From Hydrolagus colliei (Eukaryota): a stretch of 64,000 nucleotides of DNA. Shown here in pieces: positions 33,019 to 64,000 of the stretch. The notes below the pieces were generated by a model. It had not been told where the DNA came from. It did not search any database and saw only the letters and a program-made list of their open reading frames with translations. The stretch spans positions 8,308,001 through 8,372,000 of the forward strand of contig CM068752.1 of NCBI GenBank assembly GCA_035084275.1. The letters run 5' to 3'. The position numbers and the translations under genes were made by a program. Within the stretch, counting starts at the first letter, position 1, and the number at the start of each line of letters is the position of its first letter.

Positions 33019-33029
33019 TGTGTGTGTGT

Positions 33030-33059
<30 letters not shown>
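33019..33059. repeat. (TG)6 microsatellite followed by ~30-nt poly-G run
   Basis: Seen directly. Confidence 0.95.
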
Positions 33060-33060
<1 letters not shown>

Positions 33061-33444
33061 AAGAAAGAATCAAACTTATCAGTATTTTAGGATTTTGTCT
33101 ATTCATATATTAATCACAAGTGCGGGGCTGTATGATTCACAGTGGTTATATACTGTATGTTGTCAGGAAGAAAGTTAATTAGCATAGGCTCCTTTAATAA
33201 AGGGACGAATAGGAGAATTGGCGAGATGGGTTCTGCTTATTCGTACGAATATCACATGTTCCATCTGCAGTACGATGTGTTTAACAGGCGGACGCGAAAG
33301 GTGTTAGTAAGTGAACTCGCGATCACAATGGTCGATTGGTGGTAAAGAGGTTATCGAACAAGTTTTTAATTGCGCCACAGTAAATGTATATTTATTTTTA
33401 CGCAGTTTTTTTTAAAAAGTTTGAATTTTTACGAAGACATCACA

Positions 33445-33566
33445 GCTTTAAGAAACGTTCAGCTTCCTGATTGGTAGGACGGGAGTGTGGCTCCGTTGAC
33501 CAATGAGAAGCTGTAATGTGACGAGAGATCCTGCCTGTCTCCTTCCCTCCCCCATTCCACCATCAC
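33445..33566 (+). promoter_or_regulatory. V11 promoter cassette
   Basis: GCTTTAAG 33445, ATTGG 33470, CCAAT 33500. Confidence 0.75.
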
Positions 33567-33827
33567 AGATCATCAGAGACAGACTCAATGTGAATGGCGA
33601 GCTGCCTTAGCGTTATATTAGCTTGCGCTGCCCACCGATTTACCGCAACCATTGCTACAAAATCGTAGGTATCTTGCGTGTGTGTGTGGGGGTGTGTGTG
33701 TGTGTGCTACTGTTCATCAGATATTCTTCTCCATAACAAAAATGTCTGAAAAGTCACTTTATTCCTAAGAAAATATTCAACGGTACCGGTGCCGTGATCA
33801 AGCGACTGAAATGCTTTGTGCTGTAAA

Positions 33828-36281: not shown

Positions 36282-36974
36282 GTGAGGCGCTGGATTGAGA
36301 GGTCAGATGGGGGGAACACACGTTGGGGGCAGGTATCTGTGGATAGATACCTGTCCACCGACACTCAATCTAGTCTGTGGAGGAGAGAGATATACCATTT
36401 TTTAGTACTGTATATTAATAGATATTTAAAGCGTCCACGTATCACTTTCACTTCTTCTCTTCGCAGTGTCAACCTGTTGTTGATTTATTTTTACAAAAAA
36501 AGTTGTGAATTGAGATTTCTCTCGAGTTTAATGCCCTCCTGGTGGTAGTAACTGCAATTGCAAATCATGCTCGCACTGATTTATTTGCACTGCCCTCCAA
36601 TGCTGCAAATAAGCTGCATCTGATAGTGTACAACAGTGAACTCTAAAATTCGTGTCCATTACTTTATCCACCCCCCCCCCATCCCACCATCGAGCTTCTT
36701 AATGTAGAATAGGTGTGATATACAGAAAATGTTAGGATCAAATTAAGGCCATTCAGCCCATCGAGCCTGTCCTGGAAGCTTACTGGATCAGAGCAGATCG
36801 TTTAATCCCATTTCACCTAAATGATAGTGATGAATAAGAATAATAACCGTTGGCAAAACAAGCCAGGTAGCTTAGCATTGAGTAGTGTCTGAAAAATCAA
36901 CGGGATAAAAGGGTATTTTTTGATTGAGCAACTTTAAACGCGAATGCCACGCCGAGCTTCACTGGGACGTGCTC

Positions 36975-37097
36975 GCTTTAAGTGGGAGCTGGGTTAGCGA
37001 TTGGTTGAACTTGAGCCTGTCTCCTTCCACCTATCGGGAGCCGAGTTGTGCCTGAGAGATCCACAGTGCCCTCTCCCTTTCTCCAGTCACCATCGCA
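36975..37097 (+). promoter_or_regulatory. V12 promoter cassette (second box mutated to CCTAT; most divergent copy)
   Basis: GCTTTAAG 36975, ATTGG 37000, CCTAT 37030, GAGATCC retained. Confidence 0.7.
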
Positions 37098-37403
37098 CAA
37101 TCAGATGCTGAGTGAAGACGTACATACACACATAGCCAGCCAGCTGCACAAGGCTATGGTTAGGCTGTGTGTGTGTGTGTGTATAAAGCTCCACCATGGT
37201 GATTGTAGAGGGATGGGGGGGTGGACGGAGAGGATTTATTTTCACACACAAACAAGTAATTTATTTGGAGCGCATCTGAGCTCTTTTTTTTCCTGGTTGA
37301 AATGGAATGTGAACAACTTTATTCCCTGGGATAATTGCTGAACGGAGTCGCAGTGTCACGTTGAAACACTTATTTTTTGTGGAGGCGATGCTTTGAGCTA
37401 GAG

Positions 37404-39884
37404 ATGGTATGTTATAAAATAGATGGACTCCTATTAAAATGGCCACTGCTTTGTGCCATATTCTCAAGCTGGGCGCCCCTAGTTTACGGGCAGATCCGCT
37501 ACTCGATTCCCGAAGAGCTGCAGCCCGGCGCCTTCGTTGGGAACATGGCACAGGATTTGGGGTTAGACGTGAAAGCACTGGCCGCTCGCAGTTTCCGCAT
37601 CGTGTCCGGACCCAGCAGTCGATATCTGGACGTGAATCCGGACAACGGGATCTTGTTCGTCAAGGAAAAAATCGACAGGGAAGAGCTTTGCGGCCAAAGC
37701 CTGGCTTGTGTGATAGCGTTCGAGGGGGTGGTCGAAAACCCCCCGAATCTGTACTATGTCGAGGTGGGAATATTGGACGTGAACGACAACGCTCCTGTTT
37801 TCCCCAAGAGCCAGGTCAGCCTTGAAATCTCAGAGCTGGCGGCTACAGGGTCTCGATTTCCCCTAGAGAGAGCCCTGGACCCAGACGTGGGCACCAACTC
37901 CCTGCAATCCTACCAGCTGATCGACAACGACTATTTCACCCTGGATGTGCAGACGCGAGGCGAGGACGATAAGCTGCCAGTCTTAGTGCTAGAGAAGTCC
38001 CTGGATCGAGAGAAACACTCAAGCCACAGGTTAGTGTTGATGGCCAGGGATGGCGGGGTCCCGGAGAGATCAGGCACCGCCCGGATCACCGTAGTAGTGC
38101 AGGATGCGAACGATAACGCGCCCGTTTTCTCGCAGTCGGTATATAGGGTCAGCCTGTTGGAGAACGTGCCCGAAGGAACCCTCGTCATCCGACTGAACGC
38201 CACCGATTCTGACATTGGCTCCAACGCAGAGATAGTTTATTCCTTCAGTGGTCTGATTTCTGCGAGAGTGAGGGAACTGTTTAGCGTGGATTCCAGGACT
38301 GGTGAGATCAGAGTGAGAGGGAAATTAGATTACGAAGAAAACAAAGTGTTTGAGATTAATGCACAAGCAAAGGATAAGGGACCATATGCAATGCCTGTTT
38401 ACTGTGATGTTCTAGTGAATATTATTGATGTCAATGACAACACACCTGAGGTGACCCTGGCGTCTCTATTCAGCCCAGTGGGTGAGGACGCGCTGCCCGG
38501 GACTGTGGTGGCTGTGATCAGTGCAGCAGACAGAGATTCAGGAGCCAATGGACAAATACAATGTCAACTTAAAAACAAGCTTCCCTTCAAACTGGATTCC
38601 TCCTTAAAGAACTACTACAGGCTGGTTACACAGGAGCCGCTGGACAGGGAAAATGCCTCTGTGTACGACATTACCATTGTGTGCAGTGACAGAGGCTCCC
38701 CTCCTCTCACAGCCAACAAACACATCCGGGTGCAGGTTTCTGATATCAATGACAACCCGCCCAGGTTTGGGCAGCCTTTATACACAGCCCACGTGATGGA
38801 GAATAACCTGGTGGGATCTTCCATTTACTCAGTGACAGGTTATGATCCGGATTCAAACCAGAACTCTCGACTCAGCTACTCTATCCTGGAGAGTCAGGTT
38901 GAGGGGGAGTCAGTTTCTGGTTATGTTTCCATTAACTCGGACACTGGCGTCATTTTCTCTCAAAGATCCTTTGACTACGAGCAACTCAAACAGTTTCAAA
39001 TCCAAGTTCAGGCTCAGGACAATGGAACGCCAAGACTGTCCAGCAATGTGTCTGTGGATGTCACCATCCTGGACCAGAATGACAACTCCCCAGTGATCGT
39101 GTCCCCATTGCCTGAGTTTGGCTCAACAGTGACAGAGACTGTATCTCGGTTGGCAGAGCCAGGCTATCTGGTGGCCAAAGTCTCAGCCACTGACGCTGAC
39201 ACTGGGCAGAATGGGCGTCTGTCTTACCAGATTCTCCAGGCCACTGACCCTGGGCTTTTCACCATTTCTCCTGACACAGGAGAAATCTGGACCATCCGCA
39301 GTGTTGTGGGGAAAGACCCGGCTAAGCAGAGGCTGGTCATTGTGGTGAAGGACAATGGGTCACCAGCGCTATCAGCCACAATGACCATCATCCTATCAGT
39401 GGTGGGCGGTGATTCTCAAACACTCTCTGATATGAGCAGCTTGGCTAAAGACCCTGGATTGGCTGCTGACATCAGCCTATACTTTGTTATTTCCTTAGGC
39501 ATCATTTCGTCCATTTTCCTGGTGATTTTAATCACTCTCTCTGTTAAGGTTTACAAACACAGACTGGGCCTGGGGGCTTCTGATTGCCTTCTGTGCACGT
39601 GTTGTTGCTTCAAAGCTAGACATTCACTGAACGGGGTTCAGAAAGCTAGCAGAAACCTTCAGATAATGCCCAACTATGTGGAGGTATTTGGTGGTGATCC
39701 ACTGTCTCAAAGCTATCGTTATGGGTCTTACTCAACCTCTGGTTCATCCAAAGGAGACTTCCTGTATTCCAATGCATGCAGTTCCTCCAAACGTGGAAAC
39801 AACATCGGGATTGGAGCACATGGGCCACACCAAGGCCCACGGGCAGCAGATCCTACAGATTATAGGAACAATTTAAATAGTGAG
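37404..39884 (+). CDS. Clustered protocadherin variable exon V12 (last intact variable exon)
   Basis: Same layout; ATG 37404; donor GAG|GTGAGA at 39884/39885. Confidence 0.95.
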
Positions 39885-45891: not shown

Positions 45892-45950
45892 GTGAAACAA
45901 CCGAACACTGAATGGCGTCACTCACAGGCTCATCGAGTGGAGGTGAACAG
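45892..45950 (+). CDS. Pcdh constant exon 1 (59 bp)
   Basis: Strong polypyrimidine acceptor ...tttctttgtag|, donor AG|GTAACT; phase-0 start matches all variable donors; encodes VKQPNTEWRHSQAHRVEVN(S), similar to mammalian gamma QAPPNTDWRFSQAQR and alpha PRQPNPDWRYS; 59 bp is the known constant-exon-1 length. Confidence 0.93.
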
Positions 45951-46784
45951 GTAACTCTTCATTTTCCTTCCTGTGCGTGTGTTGGCTTTAGGTATGTTCA
46001 GTTAACTCTGTGTATACGTTAAATATGTTTTCAATGGTACAGCATAAATAACCCTCCCATGGGTTTCTGTGCACGCTAACCATCCTCTAAATTCTTGTCT
46101 TTATTCTGATCCATGTTTGATAACCACCACAGGTCATCTCATCACTGTTTGTGGGGCACTGCTCTGAGCGATTGTCTGCCGCGTTTCACCCACAAAAATT
46201 CAGCCTCTCTGATTGCTTATCAAAGAATCCTGTTAAAAAATCACACATTTCAGACCCAGTACATCTTCAGAATCATACCCACTTTGCATAGTCCATCATT
46301 TTTAGCCATTTCATTGACATCTTTGGAGAAACAGCCATCGCAATTTAACCTGGTAAAAATCACTTTGAGTTCAGGTCAAGATTATCCAAACTGAGTACAA
46401 TATAACATAATCCTCGCATGATTTTAGATGGAGTGAGATCTCCAATCGGTTTATGTGCCAGTGACTGCCAAATTATTATTCCTTTGCATGAAACGAATTT
46501 TGATTCAGAACTGGAATCTGCTGTCTGTTTGCATTAGATGCTTCCGAGAGACACAAATGTGGAGGAAAATTCACATGGGGGGGGATAAAGTGGCACCACT
46601 CAAGCTAAAGTTTGATCAATGAAAACACATACCCCCACCACCCCTTCTACTTAGACAGTCACTGTGATTCGAATCCCCTGGAGTAACATGCAAAGTCATT
46701 GCAAAGTGCAGGCGGTAAGACTGCAGTATTGAAGCAATGAAACAGCAGCAATAAAACAACGAAATACAGTCAAAACACTTCATA

Positions 46785-46866
46785 GAATATTCTGTGAAGC
46801 ACTTTGAGATGTCTTGAATACATGATAAGGCGCTGTATCAAATGCAAAGATTATTATTATTATTAA
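46785..46866 (+). mobile_element. SINE/L2 3' tail with (ATT)n
   Basis: ctgtgaagcactttgagatgtc...taaggcgctgtatcaaatgcaaagattattatt, repeated elsewhere in the window. Confidence 0.65.
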
Positions 46867-47683
46867 ATATAGATTTAAGCTGTTCCTTCAGTCAAAGATT
46901 AGTCCGATTCTCCGCATCGAGAACAGAATTAGTTTATTTTCATTAGCGCCTGACACATTGTGTGATATCAGCTAGCACATATTCAAGAATAGAACATTAG
47001 AATTTGCACTGTGAAACTGTGGCAGATTCGCCAGTTAAGCTTTTCATTTAGATAACTAACCATTCCATGATTGCCGACACGCACACATATTACTACCCAC
47101 TATATTTGCCCAATGACTGGTCTACCTGCCTCTACTCATAGGCCAGGCAAATCAAATTAACCACAGTATGGATGGAACAGGGATGACTTGTGTCTTTTTA
47201 GGCCCTTCTTGCCTCCTCCGGCACTAAAACTCTCTTAATTTGCTCTGTAGGAACCTAAATGTCCATTGGTGGTCTCGTTTTCAGCCACTATGCCTTTAAC
47301 ACTCTCGCCCAATGCCTCCATCTTGCATCTTCCTTCCCCATCTTCAGATTGGCGCCTGAAGACATTCCTCCGCAACCACGCTGATGGTCACCTCCGAACT
47401 CCCCCTGGCTCAGATGTGTACATAGCCATTACCAAGCGCTCTGGGATGCTAACCTGCATGAGCAGCGCTGTATAAATCCAAGGTGTTGTCCTCCTGCTGC
47501 CTTGGGTGTTTACGACTGGTTGTCTGCAGCATCTAAAGTTGAATTACAATTGATCATTCGCTTAAAATATAAAATTTTTGGAGAAAGTGAAGCTCATTGG
47601 ATGGGTCAGTTCAGATGCTGTCTCTGTTTCCTTGCTACTCTCATTCGTGATGCTTAGTGAATGTACACCTATTCCTTCTGCAG

Positions 47684-47961
47684 TTCCCAGTATTTGGAGG
47701 AGGAAGTTGTGCAGAGAGATGTGCAGAGAGATGTGCAGAGAGAGGCGCAGAGAGAGGCACAGCGAGAGGCACAGCGAGACGCACAGCGAGACGCACAGCG
47801 AGACGCACAGCGAGACGCACAGCGAGACGCACAGAGAGATTCCCAGCGAGAAGTCCAATGTGAAGTGCAGCATAACGTGCAGCGTGACGTCCCCCGGGAG
47901 TTGGAGAAAGATCCTGGAGTTCCACGGAGAGCCGTGCCTGCAAAACCCACAGCCCACCCTG
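47684..47961 (+). CDS. Pcdh constant exon 2 (278 bp, contains coding 12-bp tandem repeat)
   Basis: Acceptor attccttctgcag|, donor CTG|GTCAGT; begins phase 2 (matches exon 1) and ends phase 1; encodes SQYLEEEVV(QRxx)15PRELEKDPGVPRRAVPAKPTAHP. Confidence 0.78.
47712..47891 (+). repeat. 12-bp minisatellite, 15 units (consensus CAGMGAGAYGYR), inside putative constant exon 2
   Basis: Visible tandem cagagagatgtg / cagcgagaggca / cagcgagacgca units, degenerate at the 3' end. Confidence 0.95.
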
Positions 47962-49979
47962 GTCAGTGCTGGTCAGGGCAAAACGAACACAACACATAGT
48001 ATTTGAGATTGATGTTCATAGGAACGTAGGAACGTAGCAGTTGGCCATTTGTGTGCTGGTGCTGGCTTTGTAATTATTATAAGGAATTGACATAAGTATT
48101 TGAAGTGAAATACTAGCTGGAAAGTTTTGGGGAAAGTACAATGAATTGGGGTTAGAGGAGATAGAGAAGCGAGCACCAGCATGGATAGCATAAAGGACTG
48201 AACTTAACATGCTGCAATTTCTATACTGGCCTCAGTGAGACTTGCATCAAGAAAGGTATAGAAGTCAATTGAGTTGAGAGGAGTGTAAAGTTTAACAGCA
48301 TAACTTCAGAAATTAAGACACGGGCTAATTTTCAGAACTCAAATAGAGCAAGGAGTACAAGTTGAGTATACAGGTTGCATACTAAGCTCAAATAATGTAT
48401 ATGTATTTTACTGAAAGCACATAAGTTTGCATTACAGTGTTCTCTTGCGGTGTTTCCATAACCCATGCCTGAGCTGTGTGTGACAATAGCAAAGCTATCC
48501 ATCTAATTTGTGGATTGCTTACAGAGTTTAAGCGTGCATTTGTCTTATCCAATGTGTCTATGTGGCAATACAGTCATCTTTTATGAGTGATTTAATATAC
48601 TCCTAGCGTTTTCCTCCAATGTATTGATGAGTAACCCCTGATGTCTCGGTTGGTAAGTACGTTTTCCAGTGTTGTACACATCCGTGAGGAGGAGTGACCG
48701 AGGTTGAATTCTCAGTCCGTGCGGAATGAGCTGATCGCAAAAGTTGGCTTGAGGTTGAGCTAAGAAATTGACCATCATCCACATTTCCTCTCCTAGTTGG
48801 TATCCAAAGACTATCTTTTCCCTTTTCCTTCCACATAGTGTGAGGTCTGAGGTTGGGCTCAGCTGAGATCCATTCCCCCTCCCCCCCCCCCCCCCCCATC
48901 GTGGAATAGACCGTTGACAATATCTAACATCAAATGTCCGCTGGGTTGAGGTACTGGTATTGACATGGATACGTACACCAATAAGGGCTTGAGGAGGTGC
49001 TGGGAGACAATTATTAATGTGAAAGAACCAGAAAAAGCAAGCTTTAAATTTATGAATTGATGAACCACAGCGATCCGTCTTCCAAATTGATGTCTCACAT
49101 GAAGAATCATCCCTAATTCATATAATTTAAATCTTAAATTAAAAAAAATTAATCTTCAATTTAAATCTTCAATTTTAATCATAAATTTAAATCTTAAATT
49201 TTAAGAGAAATATGACCCACAGGCTAAGGTGAGATAGAATTTCGAGCCTCTAATTTTAATACTATTTCAATTTCCTAAGTTGCTATGAAACCGAATTCTG
49301 TGTGAAAGCCAGGAACTGTCTGCGTGGTGGTGCCTGAGGGAAATACGTACTGGGTTGATTTTTACTGAGTGGGGGAAGGATGTAGTTGCTGCGTATGGAG
49401 TCTAAGCATTGAGATGTGTTGTTGAACAATGTAACTTCAGCCACTGCAGTTCCATTCATTGATACGTTTATGAATAATTAGTTTGTGTTATATTCAAACA
49501 TCTGGCAAAGTGTTAAACTGATTCACTGATGCTTGTGAACAGAATACAAATCTGAGAACATCACAGAGCTCTCTCTCACTCTCTCTCTCTCTCTCTTTCT
49601 CACTCTCTCTCTCACTCGCTCTCCCTTTCAACGTGATTTTTTTGAATGTATCAACACAAATACAGTGGCATTTCCAACATCTATCGTTTGCTTGTCTAGA
49701 CAAATTATTCTTCTAGGCCGGTTGAACCCATTTGTTATCCTACTTCAAACGTTTAAATCCTCTTTAGAGGAGCTCTGGATCATGTGCTGGTCTATGCCAG
49801 CTCAACTCTTTATGTTGCTTTTAATTATAACTTGCATCAGTTACCCACACAAACCTCTTCTCAAGATGCCTTGGTCTGATTGTCACTATTTACTTTAAGG
49901 CCCATTATGAATCATTACAGGAACCAATCTTATTCTTCGTGAAATATATTTTGAAAAGGAATATTCCCTTAAAAAGATG

Positions 49980-50130
49980 CTGTGGTCACTCAATCCACAG
50001 CTGTTTGTGGGACATTGCTGTGCACAATTAGCTGCTGCGTTTTGCCTACAAAATATGGAGTCACTAAACTTTACAGTATGTTCTGTGAAGCATTTTGAGA
50101 CATCTAAACGATGTGAGTAGGTGCTGTTCC
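49980..50130 (+). mobile_element. Deu-domain SINE fragment
   Basis: ctgtttgtgggacattgctgtgcacaattagctgctgcgttt...ctgtgaagcattttgagacatc. Confidence 0.65.
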
Positions 50131-53100
50131 TTGTCTCAATTGGTGATGTAATCAATATGGAACTGAGCAAAATACTTGCGAAATCACAGTTTTGACCCCA
50201 GTGGTTCCAAGCTTTGACAGGAAACAGCAGGATTTTGGCTGCCATTCACCATCAGCCACCTCTGGTGGAAATTGAAACTATGGCCATTACATCAGGACAA
50301 AGAGATTGTTTCCCCCACATCCTCTCAATTGGGATGTTTCCATTGTCAAAAGCCTTTGACTGAAAATAAAATGATTTTTGTTGGGGTGGGGTTAGAAAAA
50401 GGGTTCATTCATTGTGTCACAGACCCTGTGAGCGGATCCAGGTAGATGCTTCTTTCAGTTCAGACTGGAGTATTTATTTTAGCCTGGATCTCGCCAGTGT
50501 TTAGTCAGACACTGGCAGATTGTGTTTAAATTTCTGCACAAGTTGAATCTCTAAGGGATAGACAAGCAGTGAATAGGGATGCAGTCAAAGTCCAGCATTG
50601 CTCTGGCACTTGTTCTGCCAATCCTGTTATAAATTATAAACACTTCAGCCCTTGACATCCATCTGCTAATTTGGAAAGCTACTTTTGCTGCAAGCAATTT
50701 AATGTCAATTAGATGCAATTGCATAAACATGAGTGCACACTCCTACCCTCTCTGCCCACAATCACAAACCAAACCATAGCGTTAACCCTCAAAGCAGAGT
50801 CGTTCTGCAGCGTTGCGATCTCTGTGATATTCATACTTATTCTGTAATCTAAGGGTTAACAGCTCTATTTAGACCACTTTCTCCCCAGTGGATTGAACAC
50901 CCCAGTGATGTTTGAGTGTATGACACATTCATTTCAGTTGCCATGTTCTGATTGTTTGTTTCATCCGAATTCAAAATCGTAACAAAGCAAATTCAAAGAA
51001 AAAAGTTCAACGACAGTGCCCATTTCAAAACACCCTAATTGTGTTTTGATGCACTGGCCTTTAATCTTTCTGTTAGCGCTTTCTCCCCCTCCCCTTCCCC
51101 CCGCTCTTCTCAGACTGATTAAACAATCCAATATTTTATTTCATATAACAAGAACAATTGATGCCGCCTATTAGAGTTTGGGACAATGTGAACCACTTGA
51201 CTGGCGCAATGTTATTTATTGCGTAGAATGAGGTTGAAGTAAAAAAAAGCTTGGATAGAGTTGAAAGGGAATGATGAAAGATCAAGCGATAATTCTGTAC
51301 AACAAACAGTTTCCATTAGAAGGGCCAGCAGTGGCCCTTGGGGGGAAAATAAATGATAGTTTTTATGTCGTGTTTCTTTAGAATTCGTAGAAAAGCTACA
51401 GCAGTTTTGCAGTGAGGATATTAAATTGTTTTCAATGACTTGAAGTTAAGGCATGACATTGAGTCAATGCTTACATGATCTTGGCATTGATATAAGAGGT
51501 TGAGCTCATTGGAACATTCCTGGAACCCAAGTTATTTTGTAATTCTGAGAGAGGGGTCTGGCGTGCTAGTAAGTTACAATTCGAGAAAGTCAACTCACCA
51601 ATTTTGAAACGTATCGCTGTCTGGCGATCTTTCCTGCTGCTTGCCCAGCTAGGATCACCACCCTCTACTTATTCCTCTGGCTTAAAGGGTTAGCTAGAGC
51701 TGGCCAGGAGGATTTCCTTCCCCCCCACCCAGATAGACAGGTCTGTCCTCCCAGGTCCTGCCAATGAGCCAGGCTGCACTATTATATCTCCAGCAATGCC
51801 CTGGAATACTATGGACCCACCTGGTTCAGGAACAGGACTATTGAGACCGCCACAGAGAGCTGGCTCAATTCTGGCATTCTGTTGCCAAATTTGTCACCTT
51901 GGAACCAGTTCAGCTCCAAGGAGACCCCACTTACCACCCCACCCAAGGAGGATAGTCACTCATTGGTTGTTCAACATCTGATAAGCATGGATTTGAGGCC
52001 TCACTAGGTGAGGGGTAAAATTGGTTTGAAACATTTGAATAAAATTTTAATTAGCAAAGTAGGGGCTTGGGGGCAGAGCATTTGTGGAAAGAGGAACGTG
52101 ATCTCCGTGAACCAGAAAAAAAGTCACAATGTGTTAATTAGCATAAGGAGTGGGTAAAGAAACTGCAGCAAGATAACAGGAAATAGGAATATTTCACCGC
52201 CAGATTTTCTGGAGTGTTTGACTCTCCAACTCTATAATTACGATCTCAAGTTCCCTTTTGGAATCATACATTTGAGTTCATTTTCTAAAAGAGGACTCGA
52301 GTAAATAATCCCGAAAGGTTTCATGTTAAAAAGAAACAGCATTTATTCATCTTGAGCACATTGAGGCTGCCTTTCAGTGTTTGAAGTTATTTCTGTTTCA
52401 TCCAACGATGGCCTGGATCATTTCATCGTAACTGTGTATTATTTTTATAAATCTGCAGTTTGCTCGTCTCTGCAGTTCTCCTGAAGTGAATGTCAACATC
52501 TGGGGTTAAAAGCAAAGACGGGATTTAATGTTAATGTTAACACTTAATGTGCCTGTCAGTGCCATCTGTTTCTAGGACAGATTTTATCACCCACAAAACA
52601 AACTTGAATAGTACAGTACTAAATATACAGCATAATAATAAAGAATCATTATGTTTGACATAGTGCCTTGCATATCAGAGGGATATCTCAAAGTGATTCA
52701 CAGGATAGCCTGTAAAGTGTAGTTGTCAAATTTAAATATCAGGCAAAATTTCTGCACTTTTCAAAAAGAGCCAGCTTCTAAATTGAGACGGAATCTAACA
52801 ATTTCTTCATAATTGTAGAAAATTTTAAGAGAATGATGTTCAGGCTAGGATTGTATGGAATTTCAGTCCTCAGGTTACAATAGCGCACACCACCTGGCTT
52901 TGCTACACGAAACCAAAACGCAAACTCCTTCCCCTCACACGAGTTTTGGGCATCATTGACTATTATGAGCAGACATAGTCTACCTGCCCTCTTTCTTTGA
53001 AAGGCAGACATAATGATCTGAATGCAATGTCTTATCTTATCTTATCCTATCGCAGACTCAATTTACTGGAGTTTATTTAGAGCAATAACTTAATGTAATT

Positions 53101-53919
53101 TCATATAGCAATATAATCCAACTACCCTGCGTTTTAATTAGAGTGGGTATTGGAACTATTGATGTTTTATGCCTTTGAAGCTCTCCTCTCCTCTCTCTGT
53201 TTTGTTCGGTGAACACAAAATGGAGGCAATGTAACTCAGTGTTAAAGAGCAGATATGCTTTAAGAGAAATCCCCTCTCTATCCCCACTCCTAACCTCCCC
53301 CCTCCTCACCCCAAACTGCCCCCCTTCACGAACACACTCCTTCCTACCGCCAGCAAAAATCTATCTTCCTTCACTTAAGTAATTATCCCCTGGGCTTTGT
53401 GGATGCTGGATTTCATCAAATCCTGGCTGTCTCGAAACGATGGGTTCTGCAAATCTAATAATGTGGGAACCTGCTGGGATGACTAGCAGTTCTGGAGTAG
53501 AAAGAACATTGCTACTCTTTAAATCTTTTAAACTGGAGGTGGGTTCCCAGTGCTGAAGACGTCAAGCTGCACATAAAGCAACAGAACATCACAAATAAAT
53601 CTCAGCACAATATTTACTGCGCACTTGATTGTCTATTTATTTCCTGTCCTGTGCTGTGCTCAAAATAAATCCAGCCAAAGCCTTCATTCTCTGGAGTCAG
53701 TGTTTAGCATTGACTGGTGTAGTCATAGAATGAATCACCACAGAGACAGAGCAGTGAGTTGAGGGCTCAGGCGAGTCGCAGTAAATCCGTTAGCATTCAT
53801 AGGGTTTCTGGGAACCTGACCTGCTCTGCCTGACAATGAGCGCCGGTTGTGAGGAGCGGTGGCGGAGGGGTTTAACATTCTAGACTCCTCTGCAGTGAAA
53901 GCACGCAGGGAGTTATTTC

Positions 53920-54295
53920 CCAGTCTGGTCCTGAGGCATAGAACACTGGCCTCGCAAGCGAGAGGACCTGAGGTTTGTTACACAGGCAGGGCCAAATGTT
54001 GGCAAGTATCCTTATTCCACACGCAGTCCACTGTCTATCTAGCACTAAGTAGGAATCCGTTTGTTAGTCGATCAGCAGATCACTTTCTGGGAGTAATAAT
54101 CTTTTAAAAAATTTTAAAATAAATTTGCTCACTGTTTGTGTGACACTGCTGTGCGCAATTGGCTGCCATGTTTCACTCACAAAATACGCAGTCAATTTAC
54201 TTTACAATGTATTCTATGAAGTCTTCGAGATGTCTGAATGATACAATAAGGTGCTGTATCAAATGTAAGGCTTCTTCTTATTATTATTTATTATA
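53920..54295 (+). mobile_element. Near full-length degenerate SINE (tRNA-like head, Deu domain, L2-like tail)
   Basis: Head similar to the 43968 and 57273 copies; ctgtttgtgtgacactgctgtgcgcaattggctgcc core; taaggtgctgtatcaaatgtaagg...ttattatt tail. Confidence 0.7.
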
Positions 54296-54994
54296 TTGCA
54301 GCAGGCCATTGACACCCAGCACTAAAAGGGTTACCAGTTAGAGAAAAGGGCTTTGATAATTTGGAAATAAGGCACAGTACTGGTTCAAAATTGTGTTAAC
54401 AAGTTAAATAACCAACATTAGAATCAGGAAAAAAAATCTCAAGTGCTTAGATTTAAAAGCAGGCGGAGAGTGGGGGTGGTGGTGGGTGGTGGGGGGTGGG
54501 GGGGGGAGGGAGGTGGGGGAGAGGATGGAAAGATCCAGGAGACAGAATAGGAGTTCAAGGAGCGGAATAAGCATGTTGCTATGGAAACACTCGAAAGGAG
54601 GACAGAATTGAATTAATGATGTGCAAGTACCAAGCAGCACAGAGAGAGGAGAGCTACAAATAAAATAAACACCAACAGCAGCACTCTCCTAATTTCATAA
54701 TATTGCAGTTATTATTAGAGATATTGCAATATGGAATCATAGCAAAATGTTTGAGAAAGATGCATTAGCCTTGCCTCTTGCAGGACGCAATATTCAGACC
54801 ACGTCATTGTTCACGATGTGACTGGCAGTATTGCCGTGCCCTTGTGTACTTAGTAAACGGTTAGTTTGCTTTGAGGCCAGAAATTGAACAGATTGTACTC
54901 TAAATATAAAAACACTACTTGCCAACACAACCATATTAGTCACGGTCAGCGAGTTTATTGTTCACACCTAATCCCAATCTTTTCCTGAATTAAT

Positions 54995-55215
54995 AGTAAT
55001 AATAATAATAATCCTCTAATTGGGTATAGCGGCTTATCACGTCGTTGAGACGTCTTGAAGCACATCACAGAACCTACCGTAAAGTAGATCGACTGTGTAT
55101 TCTGTGGACAAAACAACAAATAACTGGATTCCTACTATAAACAGAGGAGTGTGGAGGAAAGAAACTTGCCTAACGTTTCGCCTCGCCTGGGAATCGAACA
55201 CAGGTCCTCTCACTT
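54995..55215 (-). mobile_element. SINE copy on minus strand
   Basis: Reverse complement gives a B-box (gttcgattc), the shared body, a ...gataagccgctata tail and (ATT)n. Confidence 0.65.
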
Positions 55216-56074
55216 CCTCTTCGATGGTCCCATCGGTCACTCCAAATCCCTTTCCCTCCACCCTCCCCATTCCTGACCCCCAGCTCAGGTGTGAAACATT
55301 GACTGTCCCGTGCCCTGGGATGTCCTTCTGATGTGAAAGGCGCTATACACGTGTAATTTTGTTGTTGTTTTTGAGGCTTACTCATCAGCCTCTGCACAAT
55401 TATGTCACATTTTGCCCACAAAATTAATGAATCAATTCACTTTGCAGAATATTCCGTGAAGCTCTTTGCGATGTCATCAAATGCAAGAATTATTATTACG
55501 GGACAGGAGCTATTACTGTATAAGGAAAGTAGTACAGAATATCATATTGTCCAGTACTGCACTGCCCAGCTCACATTGCTGTTGAATTAAAGGAACTGGC
55601 ATGGTCAGGTCAGAACGTGTGGAAAGGCATTTTGGCTGATTGCACCACTGATGCAGTATTAGCTAATATCAGGGCCTCAGTCTATCTGTGCAGCTGAAGC
55701 TCAGACTATTAATAGACTGAGGAATATGGTGTTGATGGAATTTGGCCAGGGATTAGAATACAAGCCTCCTCTGGGGGTGCTAGGCACAAACCTGGACCCC
55801 ATGATCTCCTCTAGTTCTTTGACTAACACAGTATCCTGCAGCAACTCGCACGTCTCATTTTAATGCTGATCTCAAACTCCTTTGCAAGTTCCAGGAGAAG
55901 TGGTTAGTTTCACACCACATCTCATTTACTCTGAGTTTGTCATATTCGTCTCATTATACATCCTCACATCCCACATGTTTGCTCATCAACGGCAGTGTCC
56001 ACTGATCCAGTTTCTTTCGAGTCCAGGAGCAAAGCTGTATCTATTCCCCAAGCAACAATTAACATTTACATTTA

Positions 56075-56493
56075 TAGAGTGCCTTTCACGTCCTCCCGAC
56101 GTGAAAGGTGCTCTATAAATGTAAATTGTTGTTGTTGTTGTTAAATTAATTCTTTCACTTGGCGTTTTCAAGTGCATCAGTGATAATCATTATATACTGT
56201 ACTTATAATGATAATATAATACAATACAATATATTATATTGGCCTCCGGTCTACCATCAATGGCTGTTCCTTCAACCACTCCATTCTGAAACTCTGGAAC
56301 ACTCTTCCTCTGTCCGAAACCTTGCTCCTTCCTTTCCCATCTTCAGGTCATGCCTGAAGACCTTTCTCTTTGACCGTGCCTAGAGTCAACTACCCTCTCT
56401 CCCTGGCTTGCCGTTGAGCTCCCCCATTATCAAGCGCTTTGGGATGCTACCCACTGTGAGGGCACTATATAAATGCTAATTGTTGTTGTTGTT
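56075..56493 (+). mobile_element. Two L2-type 3'-end fragments with (TTG)n tails
   Basis: cgtcctcccgacgtgaaaggtgctctataaatgtaaattgttgttg (near-identical to the end of the 41.6-42.8 kb LINE); second copy ctctggaac...ctgaagacctttctctttgacc...ttgttgttg. Confidence 0.7.
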
Positions 56494-57272
56494 AGTTTGG
56501 CACTACTGGCAATGAGTTTTTGGCTGCCCTGCTCTTGTACTCCATCAATTTATGAATTCGAAACTGAGATTGCGGCATTGTCCTTTAAATGCTCCTTGCT
56601 CAGACTTGTACTCATTTGAACTCATTCCTATTCATTAAATTCCATAGCAAACTCCTGCTTTCTTTCCATTCAGGAACTGAGTCCACACAATAGAATGTAG
56701 TTTTCAGTAGTTCATCAAATCGTTAGTACTGTACAAGGAACAACAAGAAAAAGGACCACAAACTTCTCCCAGCATCGCTGTTTGCTAGTCTTATCCAGGC
56801 ATTTAAAACATACTGTATTTCATATATTTTGATCCTTCTGCCTAGAATTAAGGTCTCATTGTTCTCTGGCACATATCCATAGAGCTTTCAAGATAGCATT
56901 ATCACTGTGGTTAGCTTTTCATAGTTGACTTACTTTCACTGTGTCGTAGACAAAGGAACTTCTCCATGTGAAATATCTCATGAATGAAATAACACAACGA
57001 TGGGGTTCAATTCAATTCAAATCCTTTGAGAAACAAATCATGGATGTGAAATGAAAGTAGCACGTCTCCCTTAACATCTCCCTTGAATATGTCAGTGCCA
57101 ATTCCCAAATGTAACACATTAAATAAAACTTGTTGAGTTCTAAGGCGGAGGCAGAGACATTTACTGGAACCTTATTAACACAAACTGCTGATACCCGTAG
57201 GACTTGCAAAAAGTGAGCCAGACCTAACTTATATACAGGAACTTTCTTTCCTTGTTCCTCCTCATTTTGTCC

Positions 57273-57410
57273 TGTAGCTGAGTGGTTAGAGCACTCGCCT
57301 CCCTCATAAGCGAGTGAACTGGGTTCGATTTCCAGCAGGGCAAAATGTTGGGCAAGCTTTTTTTATTCCACATGCCTCTGTTTACCCAATAGTAAGTAGG
57401 AACCTAATTG
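57273..57410 (+). mobile_element. tRNA-derived SINE 5' part
   Basis: tgtagctgagtggttagagc (A box) ... gggttcgattt (B box), then the shared SINE body; no tRNA acceptor-stem closure. Confidence 0.72.
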
Positions 57411-58167
57411 TTAGTTATTGGCAGATAGTCAATAATGATTTGGTAACTCAATCCACGACTATTTGTGGTGGGGGGTTGGTAGAGGGAAGGGGAGAAACTG
57501 GAAACTGAATGGACAAATCTTGCTGTGAATGGGTGAGGTCTGATAAAACAGGTAAAGGTGTTTGAGCAATCAAATGTTATATTTCTGAGGCTTGAAATTC
57601 CATCAAATCTTAGCCCCATACAACAAACATTCTGGTTTAATTTGGAAGACGTTTCTCTGGTAATCTGCGGTAAAGAGCCTCACAATTTGGTAAAGCAATC
57701 AGTCCAGATGTACCACAGCGGAATGGTCAAGGGCATCTAAACGAGGTAGGCTAATTTGAATTACGCTGCATTTTTATCAAATGGATACTATTAAGGAGCG
57801 GGTGGTGGGGGGGGTGGTATATTTCCCATTGCTATTTATTGCTTGACCTATTTGTTTTGCGTTGCTGTTGTTTTGCATTGGTGCTTTCCCCTTAACCCTT
57901 CACGATGCTTGTTCCGCTATTTATTTTCAACATTTTATTGCAATCTCACGCCTGTCCGCCTTCGGCGCTATGATTTTTTTCTGCATTATTTCATAAGTTA
58001 CCTGTTTTGCTTTCATTTCCGTTGTTTCCTGGATTTTATTCTATTGTGTTTCTCCTCCTCCCCACCCCACCTCCTCCCCCACTCCCTCCTCCTCACCACT
58101 CACCACCCACCACCTACCACCAACGCACACCCACAACGGTTCCCGCTACCATGTGTTCCTTCATCAG

Positions 58168-58278
58168 CTGGTAGAGAAGGGTGGACAATACCACGGACAA
58201 CTCCACGAACTCCGTTGCAGATGAACCTGGGTGCCCACCCACCAGGAGCCATGCGAAGTCAGTATTTTCTCCCCCAAG
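58168..58278 (+). CDS. Pcdh constant exon 3 (111 bp, phase 1-1)
   Basis: Acceptor gtgttccttcatcag|, donor AAG|GTGAGC; encodes (A)GREGWTIPRTTPRTPLQMNLGAHPPGAMRSQYFLPQ; phases fit the flanking exons. Confidence 0.72.
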
Positions 58279-61124
58279 GTGAGCACCCTTCCCCTCATCC
58301 AGTCTTGGTGATGTTCCTCACCATGGCACTTCTCATGGCTTTTAAGTAAGAAAGACTTCTTTGACTTATCGTAAGTGATTACTAACACATATAATGTATG
58401 AAGCGCTTACAGAAGTCTCAACAATGTGATAAGGTTGCTGTGTCAAATGCAAGGATTGTTATTATTATTATTTCCCAACTTTGTTCGTTGAACCATTAGG
58501 ACCAGATCCATGTCCTTTACTCCGCATGTGCTCTGAGTGTTTGGATCTGGAATGAATTCCTGAATGACTTGGACGGGACCAAACGGGTTGCTATTAACCT
58601 CACAAAGCTCTGTTAGCCGCGCAGACGTTCATTAGCTTTATTTCTAACGAGTGATTACTTGTTCTTTGCAACCACCTATCACTCTCGGTTGCCTCTCCGT
58701 TTCTCTCAAGAATATCAAAAACACAAAGCCACCCTATATATTAACCAATCCAGGATATGTCTGTCAAGGTGAGAGAGGTTATCTTGCTCTCTCTATTTAT
58801 TGTTGCAAAATCCCCTCCCCATAATGGAACTCTGCCAACATCCTATATTCCAGCTGAGAGCCTGCGTATCAAGTCAGCAGGCATTATCATGTTCAAATAT
58901 CAGTGGAGGATCGGATTCAAACTCAGTTCAGTGCAACCAGTGTTCCAACATTAGGACTTCCAGACTGCCTCAGCTCAGTGGCCTTTCGCTTCACCAAGTA
59001 AATTAATCAATTGGCATATTAATATTAATTAATATGTCAACGTAACAAACATCTACCATGGGAGATAGACAAACTGTGCAGACTCAGGTTTGTAGCTTTC
59101 AGAAGAGAAAAGGTGGACAGACAATTTAAGGCTCACTGCACAGCACAGAGTGCGGTGAGTGTGTAAATAAAGATTGATATCGGCAGTGGGGACAATCTGG
59201 GCGAATTCAAGAGGAGCTCGACAAATTGTTTGGCAAAAGAATGAAATTGAAGAGCATATGAGCAACATTTAAAGGGAAAGAAAATAATTCTAATGGGCAC
59301 AGTGAGAGAGTAGGATAATAAGATTGGACTGAAATAGTGAGCAAGCTAGCTGGCGAGAGATTTTCCCTGCAATTTCCATGTCAGCAAGTTAAAGAATCTT
59401 TTTCTTCAATGATATCCAACCAAGTTTAAACATATGATGCACTGTTTTTAATAACCTTCTCTTATGAAAGTCTCATTACTGGTGAATAATCCCTTTCTCT
59501 CTCCACACTGCCAAGCTATTTCTGTTGCCCTCTGGCTAAGCACAAGCTTGAAGAAGCTTGCTCGCCTATGTGTGTGTGTATGTGATTTCAGATCCCCTCC
59601 ATTTGCAGGGTGTGCTTTCAGCAATCGGAGAGAGCTACAGTGCTCTCAGTCACTGGCTGGGGGCAGAGCTCTGCTTCACAAATCCTACCCGTTCAGCCAT
59701 ATCCAATTTAATCAATGCTTGTATGGGAATACAATCCATATGTTGATTTATAAGGGGAATAAGCAAAATACATTTGATGTGTTAACCTATGAGAATGTCG
59801 AGACCGATTAGAATGAGTTGCTTAGATCCATATTGTTCACAGAGGCTATTCCCAGTACCCTGAAGGAATGATCAGGTATTAATCCTTTCATCTTGGAAAT
59901 GTCATCCGGAATGATTGGAGCGAGTTTCCCTCTTGTGAGCAGGAACATTGCCTTGCTCTCTCCGCGGATATGTATTAATGCAGCCACCATGCACTTACCT
60001 CCCAGAGGCGTTTATGGTGTGCTCTTGTTATTTCGGAGTCTTAAGACTGGTTCACATGGTTGTTAATTTCATGGTACATTTTGCCCACATACTATTGCAC
60101 AATGGGTCTTTTGGCTAAGTTAGGTTGGTGTGGGAAGCTTCAGTGAGATCAGAGTGTCAAGTGAGTTTCAAGACGGACATAGGTGGGTGTATGGCGATAG
60201 GGTAGAGCAGTGAGATTGAATGAATAACTTGGTCTGAGACACTCAATGGGCCAAAAAATGGCCTCCTTACCTGCTAACAAATGTCTGTCATTCCTTGTTG
60301 TTGGCCAATAAGAGCATTTATTTTTCTTTGTTTTGGTGAAATATTTATCGATAATTTTCCAAACGCAGAAAACAAAACAAGTCGGGGGCTGATGATGGCA
60401 CACTGGGTATTATGAAGGGTGATGCAGAGGCTGGCAGAGAGGGTCACACAGCCTGGTCACAGCTATAAAACAGCTCACATGATTGTGGATACACTACAAG
60501 GTCATGATTGAATCCATCCTGGGGAACACTGACATCTCTGGCAAGGAAAGGCACACACGAGACAGCTTGGAATACCATGAATAATTAAAAAGGGTATACA
60601 GTATTTTGGTTTCTTCGTCTAAGTCAGTGCTTATGGGATCTGTTTAAAGGAGGCTGTAGGACAAATCATCCAGGTATGGAGGCTGACCTCAATATTTCCT
60701 CTTAGCCTGTGTGGACACAGACAGTTAAATGATGTTTATGGTAAAAAAAATTCGACCGACTGATGTTTAACATGTACCACAGATTCGGAGGCTGGATTGA
60801 GGAGGGCTGCTGTGTTGGCTTCACGAAACCAATTCCCTCTCGACACTACCTCGCTGCATGAATTGTTCACTTATTCACCAGCTTCTGGGTAAAGAAATTA
60901 AATCTGCACTCCCTGTTTACTCCCCCCTCTTTGGGACTTAACACCACACACCCAGATCTCTGGGCTACATCGCACATACTATTGCAGTCAGGTCACTCGA
61001 CAGCCCTTGAAAAATCTTTTCCAGCATTGCGCAATCTCTGCCAATAACCCTCTCTCGTATATATGCAGCAAATGTGTTTCAGTTGTTAATTTCTTCCTAG
61101 TCGCTTTGTCTGGGTGGCTCGGTC

Positions 61125-61240
61125 CAGTTCTGATGAGGGATCTGGCACCCGAAACGTTAATCTACCTTTCTCTTTCAGATGCTGATAAATCTGCTTCTGC
61201 ATTTCCAGACTTTTCTGTTTTTGTTTCAGGGTTCCAGTCT
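61125..61240 (+). mobile_element. Interspersed repeat fragment (possibly Penelope-like or V-SINE-related end)
   Basis: ctgatgagggatct...cccgaaacgttaa...cagatgctg...catttccag...ttttctgtttttgtttcag resembles, from memory, a common fish/shark repeat; not database-checked. Confidence 0.45.
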
Positions 61241-62096
61241 TCACAGGTTTCCCTCTTTAATTAATCTCTTTGGCGTTCTCAGCTTTAACATCAAACTCAA
61301 GGGCTGGTCAGGCACTACTGCCCAGAGCTAATTAGGATAAAAGTATTACTGAATTACCTTAAAATCCCGTCTGAATTAGGCTGTCTTCCCTTTCCCACAC
61401 CAGGGATCCTTTGCCAAATTACCACCACCAACAACAACAACTTGCACAGTACCCGCCATTGTCAGCCAGTGTCTCAGAGCATTTAATTTAGAGCCATCTT
61501 AGGAAACAAGTTAGTTCCATGAGACTCTCATCCAAAAGGACCCGGGCTGAGTTTGGGCGCAAATACATCTCACCCAAACACTCTTCCATCCCAAGGAGAC
61601 GTTCATCCCATTAATCAGGTCTCGAGAGGTAAAAAGTGTCACCCAGTTCATACACTATACTAATCCTCAATAATACTCCAGAGAATGCCACAGAAGAGCC
61701 CATGGCATCTGCCCACTCATCCTAGCTATCAACTCACTGGGTCAGTATGAATAGGGGAACTGCAAACAGGCTAGTGGACTGATAGTGACACACAGCTCAG
61801 CTCAGCAAAAGCCATCAGCCAATAACGACACACCATCTCACAGGCTAGTAGTCAGTGTTCCTCACAGCAATGAGACCAATTGCACTGTTGTTAACTTCAC
61901 ACTGGCTGAGATCAGCTCACTAACCCATCAGAGGTGGAACCTGTGGCTTTCCCAGTCTGTAATACTACTTCTCCGCTGGGTAGTGATTGCACTCATCCTC
62001 TGAGCTACTCACTCACTCACTCACTGACTCACACTTGATAGCAGTGCACTGCGACACAGGTGATAACTGATGTTTGCACCCATTGTGCCCTAACAG

Positions 62097-62311
62097 AGGG
62101 CATCGAATCATCTCCAGTTCGGGCAGCAGGAGAGCAGAGCTGGACGCCCAGACTGGCCGTGAAGTTCCCCCCGCATCACCAGGCCACTGACTATCTACAC
62201 AATGTCTACATCCCGGGAACAACGGCCACCCTCTCCGGGAAATCCACCTCCGAACGCGAGGGGAAGAAATCCTTCATCACCTTCGGGAAGAAGAAGAAGA
62301 GCGGTAAATAA
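62097..62311 (+). CDS. Pcdh terminal constant exon 4 (coding part)
   Basis: Acceptor ttgtgccctaacag|, phase 1; encodes (E)GIESSP...DYLHNVYIPGTTATLSG...SFITFGKKKKSGK*; DY..NVYIPG..ATL is gamma-constant-like, while FITFGKK plus a Lys-rich end is alpha-constant-like. Confidence 0.92.
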
Positions 62312-63614
62312 GCTTTCAGCAGAACGAGAGAAACAGAGTTTAACAAAAGAACATTATTAATAATAATAATAGCAACAACAACAATATCGGCACTGCATGT
62401 CTGAAGCACGTTTTGTGTTTTTTTAGGAAAATGACTAAAATGTCACTTACTTACTTAAACCACTGGGACCAACCCGGTTTCCTTTTTTTTCCGCTGCCCT
62501 AAGTATTAGTTTGAAAGGGAATGGAGATTTTAAACTATAATAGGTATGTTCAGAGAGCTGGAATGCCTTGGAAGGAATCGGGACCCTTAAACCTAGCAAC
62601 TGCCATGGATGAAAATACCTTTGCACTATTAGAAATGTGCTGACTACATGTCTTCAATCGTTGACATGTGTAAAGTGCTGGTCATCAGTGTTGGTTATCA
62701 ATCACTGTTGTCAATCAGTTTCCAACCAAGCTGCTGGGTGCAAAGCAAAGTTTCTGAGCAGTCTAGCATTTCCCCCATGGGAAAAGAATTGGCTCAAACC
62801 ATCTCTCTCTCCAGCACACATCAACTGACTGGTTGAAAGCGCCCAGGGATTGAGAGGGATGCTTCATTGCAATTTTAAGTTCACTCCTTTTCTCACCAAA
62901 ATACCCAAGTAAAGTGAGAACCCCTTCTCCTGCTTCCCCCCCCGCCACCCACATCCACCCACAACCACGCCCCCCCCCCACCCCCCTCCCACCCACTCCT
63001 TCCCACCAGCCCCCAAGATGGTTAAAACGTTTGAAGAAAGATCCATTCCCTTTTTCAAAGACTTGTTACACATATTTCAACTATTGTCGGCAGCCACTGA
63101 TTTTACTCAATCCCATTCCCTAAGCTAACGTGTCTCCATTTAACAATTCCAACGTGTCACTCGGCCTTAACATAGATTAAGCAGCGTTTTGTCCCTAATT
63201 GTGCATGTTGCCCCATCCCCCGACCTCTGCCCCCCACCCTCTTCCCAGCCGACAAGGGTTATCGCTCTTATGAAATTTTCTGTAATTTATTTACCATCGA
63301 ACATCCCAGCTTTAATGTTCGGATGGTGTGTGGCAGATCATAAAAGAGAAAAACATGTGTGTATAAAACAAAGCAAAGCCTTCCTTCCTTTATGGGTTGA
63401 GTTGGGTCAGAACAATACCAACACATCCCATCCCATTCGTGGCCAAAGAGAAAGCTCCTTCCTGATATTCCTGATCTGACTCCATTGGAACTGTAGACAA
63501 TATTGGCTGTTTTATCAGGAGTTGGCCCCTGTCATAATATCTCAAAGAGATCTCATGATGGACAATGTCTGTTGCAAGGAAGAGAGACAGGCAGAGATTG
63601 AAATTGGAATTCAA

Positions 63615-63700
63615 TTGAGGTTGAGGTACAGATCGGCCATGAATGACGGAACAGGTTCGAGGGGCTGAATGGCCTACCCCTCTTCCTATATTCCTATAGG
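63615..63700 (+). mobile_element. CR1-type LINE 3'-end fragment
   Basis: ggaacaggttcgaggggctgaatggcctacccctcttcctatattcctat; a related minus-strand piece lies at ~36745-36772. Confidence 0.6.
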
Positions 63701-64000
63701 CAAGAAAGAGTGTGAGAAAGGGAGAAAGGGAAGAGTGGAAAAAGGGAACAAAGGACTAGAGGAAGGAAGGAAAAATATAAAATATTAATATGCTGAAAAT
63801 GCTTATAAATAAATTTTGTGGAACAAGGACTTGACTATTTAGATACCCCTTTAAGTCCTGAAATGTAATTTTTTTTTCTGAAAAACAGCAGCGATAACCC
63901 TATAATCATGATTTTTGTCTTCTGGACTGGAATAATGAGCCAAGGCTTTGTGAAAAGCCTTTGCTAACCAGTGCTAGAGCAAGCGCAAGTACTTTGTAGC

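Follow-up and report, generated by a model that had tools for sequence, protein, structure and literature searches.

Judged by its sequence, the locus contained in the 64,000-nucleotide stretch of Hydrolagus colliei DNA analysed here (the window) is the already known chondrichthyan Pcdh-nu subcluster in one further species, and as a locus it is ordinary. Its products, the protocadherin-nu proteins, serve recognition between nerve cells. Our working hypothesis, to which we give a probability of about 0.88, is that the window carries a Pcdh-nu constant region with core exons 1, 2 and 4 and a cassette exon 3, and that the encoded tail has its ancestry in common with the tails of Pcdh-alpha, -gamma and -delta.

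A Pcdh-nu subcluster was reportedly described in the elephant shark (Callorhinchus milii) by Yu and colleagues in PNAS in 2008, and its records are those which we take to be the GenBank ABV59349-ABV59363 series and UniProt B0YN86-B0YNA1. In RefSeq, nu proteins are labelled gamma-, beta- or PCDH10-like, which hides their nu identity. The elephant shark report (Yu et al., 2008) is cited in excerpts of both PMC2764143 and PMC4978886. Among 16 named C. milii nu proteins, the best matches of all 11 variable exons of the window are nu9-nu17, in collinear order and at 84-89% identity, and for the last variable exon nu17 ranks first of 8000 scored candidates. The array has the hallmark of a clustered protocadherin locus, namely large variable exons whose donors (11/11) are in phase with constant exon 1 (Table 1), and Pfam detects six cadherin stretches and Cadherin_C_2 in the last variable exon, the one scanned of the 11. 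No gene flanking the cluster falls within the window. In a search with exon 4, C. milii nu proteins (97% identity) take the first five of 19 places, and residues identical to C. milii nu number 17/19 in exon 1, 34/36 in exon 3 and 68/70 in exon 4. In an unrooted tail tree of 19 rows and 124 of 205 columns, built without the repeat and exon 3, the window tail is placed in the starred nu group (97/99), adjoining C. milii. The exon 4 matches, the variable exons and the tree thus bear out the initial annotation's suggestion of a non-alpha, non-gamma chondrichthyan subcluster of the kind described in elephant shark, and identify it as Pcdh-nu. Family knowledge and the matching phases suggest that, as in the alpha and gamma clusters, each variable exon would have its own promoter and be spliced to the common exons, so that each isoform would combine a different ectodomain with a common cytoplasmic tail. 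A search for canonical NRSE sites within 2 mismatches found none. Bare CGCT lies within 400 nt upstream of 8/11 variable exons, a count made without a chance control and not used as evidence.

Table 1. Positions of Pcdh-nu features in the window
Feature	Positions	Strand	Remarks
Intact Pcdh-nu variable exons (11)	1728..39884	+	about 2.5 kb each; phase-0 GAG/GTGAG donors
Last bases of the variable exons	4187, 8564, 12224, 15537, 19011, 22340, 25768, 29239, 32722, 36281, 39884	+	
Best elephant shark matches, in array order			nu9, 10, 11, 12, 13, 13, 14, 15, 15, 16, 17
Constant exon 1	45892..45950	+	59 nt, phase 0 to 2; 17/19 to C. milii nu
Constant exon 2	47684..47961	+	278 nt, phase 2 to 1
Exon 3, putative cassette	58168..58278	+	111 nt, symmetric phase 1 to 1; conserved across cartilaginous fishes
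Candidate alternative exon 3b	60783..60892	+	AG acceptor, phase 1, 36 codons then TAA
Last constant exon (exon 4), coding part	62097..62311	+	phase 1 to stop; NVYIPG block, FITFGK WIRS, basic end
Probable 3' UTR	62312..63813	+	ends at the only AATAAA/ATTAAA seen after the stop (63808)

The four constant exons drawn by the initial annotation are present in the DNA as it placed them, with 59+278+111+215 = 663 nt encoding 220 aa and TAA; AG precedes each exon, GT follows the first three, and the phases run 0-2, 2-1, 1-1 and 1-stop. Donors of the first three exons agree with MAG/GTRAGT at 8, 7 and 8 of 9 positions. In the C. milii database proteins P0020 and P0037 these four pieces are joined at identical boundaries, which puts the structure far beyond chance. 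From the DNA together with orthologous database proteins, the constant exons are predicted to be spliced in H. colliei as well, and the same orthologous proteins point to variable-to-constant splicing. The last constant exon matches Pfam Cadherin_tail (PF15974) with 37.1 bits against a cut-off of 22. Like the window, C. milii Pcdh-nu has the variable exon order nu9-nu17, constant exons 1, 2 and 4 and identical motifs, and exon 3 and element 3b are also present in its automated models, whereas exon 3 is skipped in its named nu proteins, whose tail is 163 aa long. The window differs further in having two variable exons that match nu13 and two that match nu15, in the 84-89% identity of its variable exons, and in exon 2, where a 12-nt tandem repeat encodes 15 tetrapeptides of the Q-R-D/E-V/A type, exceeding the C. 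milii repeat by 20 residues. These differences mark the window as coming from a holocephalan other than C. milii. In the run X1, which behaves as genomic contigs, may itself have given rise to the window sequence and was not used as splicing evidence, no variant is listed within the five exon stretches and the listed joints sit at repeats, away from exon ends; the listed pieces break inside the exon 2 repeat, so that its copy number is not bridged.

The fifth of these stretches, candidate exon 3b, was overlooked in the initial annotation. Its peptide is identical (36/36) to the end of the C. milii UniProt models A0A4W3JGI5, A0A4W3KA34 and A0A4W3KA36, and a weak possible donor follows position 60888. 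Either use of 3b, through its stop or through this donor, would give a predicted tail without FITFGK, and splicing seems to yield nu tails that carry the actin-recruiting motif and others that lack it. One alternative, which we regard as quite plausible though not as the favoured reading, is that 3b is a conserved non-coding element (an enhancer or splicing regulator) annotated as an exon by the automated C. milii pipeline. An identity at least as high as that of the accepted exons is surprising in a dispensable tail end and agrees with constraint at the DNA level; the splice sites are weak (acceptor 11/22 pyrimidines, donor 5/9), GC content hardly differs between codon positions, a single pipeline is the probable source of all three C. 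milii models, and no 3b homologue was found in the shark models. There is also a precedent, excerpts of PMC7811963 placing the mouse enhancer HS7 between Pcdh-alpha constant exons 2 and 3. However, the AG acceptor of 3b lies exactly at the C. milii model boundary and its phase is correct, no stop interrupts the reading frame before the TAA, and ATTAAA (60897-60902) follows 5 nt past it, a coincidence noticed after the fact that is expected in about 3.5% of cases within 30 nt.

In shark and ray models (11/11 species), the frame of the last exon is instead shifted by an insert of about 100 nt. Homology between this insert and 3b was considered and rejected: shuffle p values were 0.14-0.90 over 11 peptides, and with a back-translated matrix the score there was 10.9, below the background top of 17-19, while the exon 3 control reached 81. 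In the window, the shifted frame of the last exon contains stops. A search for exon 3 and 3b outside the group returned zero matches and is uninformative, since even shark proteins in which exon 3 is known to occur were missed.

With regard to the history of the tail, alpha (100/100) and gamma (100/99) each form a starred group of their own in the tree, and the window tail, which has a WIRS, lies with neither. The initial annotation had named grouping as an ordinary alpha or gamma orthologue as the outcome that would count against it; the groups are separate, but a sister relation of nu to either is not rejected (p-AU 0.44 for nu+alpha and 0.41 for nu+gamma, with 0.38 for nu+mu candidate), and nu+delta has support of 40/0. 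As the tree is unrooted, gain and loss of motifs are indistinguishable in it. It is nevertheless unlikely, in our view, that nu, instead of being a separate ancient subcluster, is the orthologue of gamma (or else of alpha or delta) that diverged in cartilaginous fishes. Affinity to gamma is seen in the NVYIPG block (score 60, against 26 for alpha), in exon 4 (103 against 76), in the p-AU value just given and in the profile search, where gamma provides 24/31 of the non-nu cadherin-tail matches, although such counts reflect database size; by score, delta tails (56.3 bits) rank above gamma tails (50.6 bits) in that search. Gamma rows, moreover, stand apart in their own group and lack the WIRS, and excerpts of PMC2764143 describe epsilon, mu and nu as having no orthologues in bony vertebrates. 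Orthology to gamma would be compatible with membership of nu and would alter only its history.

Exon 3 looks like a cassette exon, which would add 37 residues in frame to a core tail of exons 1, 2 and 4. Its peptide is identical at 34/36 positions to C. milii models and at 23-24/36 to those of 11 elasmobranchs, with 22/36 columns invariant, and resembles neither alpha (p 0.26) nor gamma (p 0.73), as had been noted initially. Among 105 proteins with the nu tail, a set of cluster representatives plus a few members that is no isoform census, exon 3 is skipped in 16/16 named C. milii nu proteins and included in 5/5 automated C. milii models; it occurs in some model of 11/11 elasmobranchs, 5/11 of which show both forms, the evidence for inclusion being automated gene models. 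We consider it improbable that all four exons are constitutive in H. colliei, as first drawn: the splice sites of exon 3 are strong (donor 8/9, acceptor 16/22 pyrimidines), the exon is well conserved, and 6/11 elasmobranchs have only exon-3-containing models among those compared, yet its symmetry, its absence from every named C. milii nu protein and the presence of both forms in several elasmobranchs all speak for a cassette. A fixed four-exon design is not supported: exon 3 is missing from the named nu proteins, and the core, as in alpha and gamma, consists of three exons. Junction reads that skip exons 2 and 3 or use others, or a tail grouping as an ordinary three-exon alpha or gamma orthologue, had been set down at the outset as telling against the initial reading, and the database proteins go part of the way, with exon 3 skipped and a three-exon core. 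A literature search covering titles and opening abstracts, with most subscription papers outside its scope, found no paper on nu splicing.

Without the repeat, the three-exon tail has 123 aa, against 124 for gamma, with which it aligns end to end, and it is collinear with alpha, gamma and delta tails; overall scores are 129 for nu versus alpha, 124 for nu versus gamma and 114 for alpha versus gamma. The motifs quoted in the initial annotation are all present in the window tail, but some of its assignments need revision. That exon 1 is specifically gamma-like is not supported, as it scores 53 for gamma and 49 for alpha. Exon 2, thought to be unrelated to either, occupies the position of constant exon 2, its greater length being due to the 12-nt repeat, and has an alpha-like start (24 against 13 for gamma). 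Nor does the mixture of motifs look peculiar to this subcluster, since both motifs occur in the tails of clustered Pcdh-delta. The best non-nu cadherin tails in the profile search (from which 60/92 matches, unrelated proteins mostly hit through the tetrapeptide repeat only, were dropped) are of delta type, headed at 56.3 bits by P0212 (protocadherin delta 1 of Chelydra, KAG6921651.1), which has a collinear tail with NVYIPG and FSTFGK, an F-x-T-F-G-K motif; the name delta is on only 1/5 delta-type rows, the other four being assigned by similarity. Delta differs in being a single-gene subcluster with one variable exon (excerpts of PMC2764143), and the delta rows compared lack the tetrapeptide repeat and exon 3 sequence and have FSTFGK in place of FITFGK. 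A search of the ESM Atlas gave no usable match. Pcdh-alpha has three constant exons, an identical FITFGK and similar exon 1 and exon 2 start, but its NVYIPG block has diverged, its lysine-rich end is longer, and it has four PxxP and its own starred group; Pcdh-gamma likewise has three constant exons, the closest NVYIPG block and a basic end, but differs in exon 2. The motif 'mosaic' is probably ancestral: the nu tail would derive from the same ancestral tail as those of alpha, gamma and delta and, like delta, would have kept both the NVYIPG block and the WIRS, with gamma lacking the latter, perhaps through loss, and alpha having a diverged block. A true mosaic formed by recombination of alpha-like and gamma-like constant regions, suggested by affinities that alternate from exon 2 start (alpha) to NVYIPG (gamma) to FITFGK (alpha), is scarcely credible, as the alternation falls inside one exon, delta tails have the same motif combination, all tails are collinear members of Cadherin_tail, differential retention is simpler and the segments compared were chosen after the alignment was seen.

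The sequence SFITFGKKKK was correctly called alpha-like and a match to the WIRS pattern, FITFGK being identical to the mouse Pcdh-alpha motif whose mutation to FIAAGK abolishes Pcdh-alpha rescue of migration (excerpts of PMC6047886). In all 5/5 aligned nu tails FITFGK is invariant, and its cytoplasmic location and agreement with the experimentally tested Pcdh-alpha motif are those of a WIRS-bearing receptor; given this motif identity, the nu tail may bind WAVE. Short F-x-T-F motifs do not always bind. Alpha and gamma are reportedly absent from cartilaginous fishes, and nu would then show which tail motifs a multi-isoform cluster has kept. The value of the locus is comparative, nu having retained the actin-recruiting WIRS. 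It is tempting to speculate, although we hold the combined proposal to be doubtful, that a splice-controlled WAVE on/off switch arose twice in the nu tail, through 3b in holocephalans and through the unrelated frame-shifting insert in sharks and rays, in parallel with the A and B tails of mammalian alpha, and that, taken with delta, the ancestral clustered tail of jawed vertebrates bound WAVE and gamma lost the motif. In alpha, an isoform without the WIRS end exists (P0171), and a 56-residue tail specific to the A type is described in excerpts of PMC3472330. If the WIRS-less nu isoforms are real, splicing-off of WAVE coupling recurs in three lineages, and it would be worthwhile to test what such tails do, the alpha B-type among them. 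PxxP motifs number 0-3 in the nu tail, versus 4 in the mammalian alpha row.

The four constant exons proposed in the initial annotation were all recovered when the sequence was checked, with coordinates, splice ends and phases as described: AG precedes each exon, GT follows the first three, and together they amount to 663 nt, encoding 220 residues and a stop. Located 5' of these exons are 11 long open frames, which are protocadherin variable exons, each ending in a phase-0 GAG/GTGAG donor compatible with exon 1. After the last variable exon, and before the first constant one, a frame matching reverse transcriptase marks a retroelement remnant. Two tRNA-like matches, the stronger of which falls in a high-depth repeat bin, are probably the heads of tRNA-derived SINEs.

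Positions of features discussed in the text (window coordinates)
Feature	Position	Strand	Details
Two variable exons, best match nu13	16513-22340		
Two variable exons, best match nu15	26687-32722		
Reverse transcriptase-like frame	41604-42587		328 codons; Pfam RVT_1
tRNA-like Rfam match	43961-44034		29.5 bits
Constant exon 1	45892-45950	+	phase 0-2
Constant exon 2	47684-47961	+	phase 2-1
tRNA-like Rfam match	57268-57343		48.2 bits
Constant exon 3	58168-58278	+	phase 1-1
Candidate exon 3b	60783-60892		36 codons, then TAA
Alternative C. milii end	60783-60889		36/36 residues identical
ATTAAA element	through 60902		five bases past TAA of 3b
Constant exon 4	62097-62311	+	phase 1-stop

The constant region is the already known Pcdh-nu. 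With exon 4 as sole query (E up to 10), 19 proteins were retrieved: five from Callorhinchus milii (elephant shark) that bear the name protocadherin nu (97 % identity), six from sharks or rays (87-89 %) and eight of gamma type that matched weakly (approximately 40 %). Identities with a four-exon C. milii model are 17/19 in exon 1, 34/36 in exon 3 and 68/70 in exon 4. When the 11 variable exons were compared with the 16 named nu proteins, their best matches (84-89 % identity) were, in order, nu9, 10, 11, 12, 13, 13, 14, 15, 15, 16 and 17; the paired nu13 and nu15 matches suggest either duplications in the window or losses in elephant shark. The window tail adjoins that of C. milii within the starred nu group when 19 tails are placed in a tree. 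From the identities we infer that the nu subcluster of a holocephalan other than C. milii is represented in the window by its 3' half. Exon identity, variable-exon order and the tree thus bear out the proposal of a non-alpha, non-gamma subcluster known in elephant shark, in which delta, epsilon, mu and nu clusters have been described (PMC2764143, PMC4978886); according to the former, epsilon, mu and nu are without orthologues in bony vertebrates (PMC2764143).

Four constant exons are present in the DNA, but the fixed four-exon design envisaged earlier is not supported, since none of the 16 C. milii proteins named as nu includes exon 3. Among the 318 database proteins examined, 105 with a nu tail, exon 3 is included in 5/5 automated C. 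milii models with that tail and in some model of all 11 elasmobranch species, five of which have both forms; what is counted here is gene models, taken from the representatives and members of clusters, and not transcript abundance. Exon 3 (111 nt) has equal phase at both ends, so that skipping keeps the frame, and the window and 12 database species show no variation at 22 of its 36 codons. Exon 2 owes its large size to a 12-nt tandem repeat encoding 15 tetrapeptides, which exceeds that of C. milii by 20 residues. Minus exon 3 and the repeat, the tail has 123 residues (gamma has 124) and is collinear in alignment, end to end, with gamma, alpha and delta tails. Judged from these sequences, the nu tail looks like a three-exon core plus a conserved cassette, exon 3, which is already in database models. 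According to the initial annotation, the first constant exon of mammalian alpha and gamma is 59 nt long. Alpha and gamma have three constant exons each (PMC2764143, PMC7811963). In a whale shark model (P0200), nine additional residues where exons 1 and 2 meet point to an alternative acceptor.

The tail had also been read as an alpha/gamma mosaic. With a single mammalian tail of each type as reference, the three-exon tail scores 129 with alpha and 124 with gamma, and alpha versus gamma gives 114. Exon 1, thought gamma-like, is not specifically so (53 gamma versus 49 alpha); in exon 4 the NVYIPG block is nearer gamma (60 versus 26 alpha), and the WIRS (WAVE-complex-binding) motif FITFGK is indeed alpha-like, being common to alpha and the window tail. 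Exon 3 resembles neither, as claimed, but exon 2 does not share this property, its first 13 residues being nearer alpha (24 versus 13 gamma, P 0.008, for a segment picked post hoc). A profile built from five nu tails in their three-exon form matched 92 proteins, of which 60 were dropped as unrelated, mostly matching the repeat; the 32 retained comprised 1 nu, 24 gamma, 5 delta-type and 1 alpha tail, together with 1 skate tail of unnamed type, taken as a mu candidate. Outside nu, the best tail belonged to a turtle protein that carries the name protocadherin delta 1. NVYIPG and FSTFGK occur together in all five delta-type tails, and therefore the NVYIPG/WIRS combination is not peculiar to nu; the motif set is common to nu and delta, and the combination would most simply be ancestral. 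The phylogeny called for earlier groups the tail with nu. Being unrooted, the tree does not prove that the combination is ancestral: nu+delta has support of 40/0, and nu+gamma (p-AU 0.41), nu+alpha (0.44) and nu+mu candidate (0.38) are none of them rejected. The possible mu constant region is a skate clustered tail (P0233, P0309, P0310) with an NVYIPG-like block and without WIRS.

By analogy with mammalian clusters, as covered in three reviews (PMC7811963, PMC7688460, PMC7339444), promoter choice would most likely select one variable exon, splicing would append the shared tail, and the ectodomain would give isoform-specific homophilic recognition. FITFGK would most likely bring in the WAVE complex, leading to branched actin, a step proposed because the motif is identical to that of mouse Pcdh-alpha, in which FITFGK-to-FIAAGK abolished rescue (PMC6047886). 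Our guess is that the exon 2 repeat is a flexible spacer and exon 3 an optional docking segment.

The remaining lead from the locus is a possible splice switch that would delete WIRS from the nu tail. In three C. milii UniProt models exon 3 is spliced to another 36-residue end, which the window encodes in candidate exon 3b, overlooked in the initial annotation. An AG lies just 5' of 3b, in the right phase. Whether it ends the transcript or serves as a 106-nt cassette (weak donor after 60888), the predicted tail lacks FITFGK. We put the probability that 3b is used as an exon at roughly 0.6; weak splice sites, GC that is flat by codon position and the probable single source of the three models tell against such use, as does the alternative that 3b is a conserved regulatory element. 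When exon 3 plus 3b served as query for related sequences, even the positive control was missed. Apart from exon 3b, models from 11/11 elasmobranch species (e.g. P0039, P0049, P0053, P0110) carry a different insert, of approximately 100 nt as inferred from peptides, that precedes the last exon (62097 in the window) and shifts its frame, so that FITFGK is lost; the shifted frame is open for approximately 50 codons in sharks and rays and has stops in the window. Homology of 3b to this insert was rejected. An alpha isoform of a bat in the protein set likewise lacks the WIRS end, and mice without the A-type alpha tail show axon defects (PMC3472330). Alternative nu exons may already be in the supplement of the 2008 elephant-shark paper.
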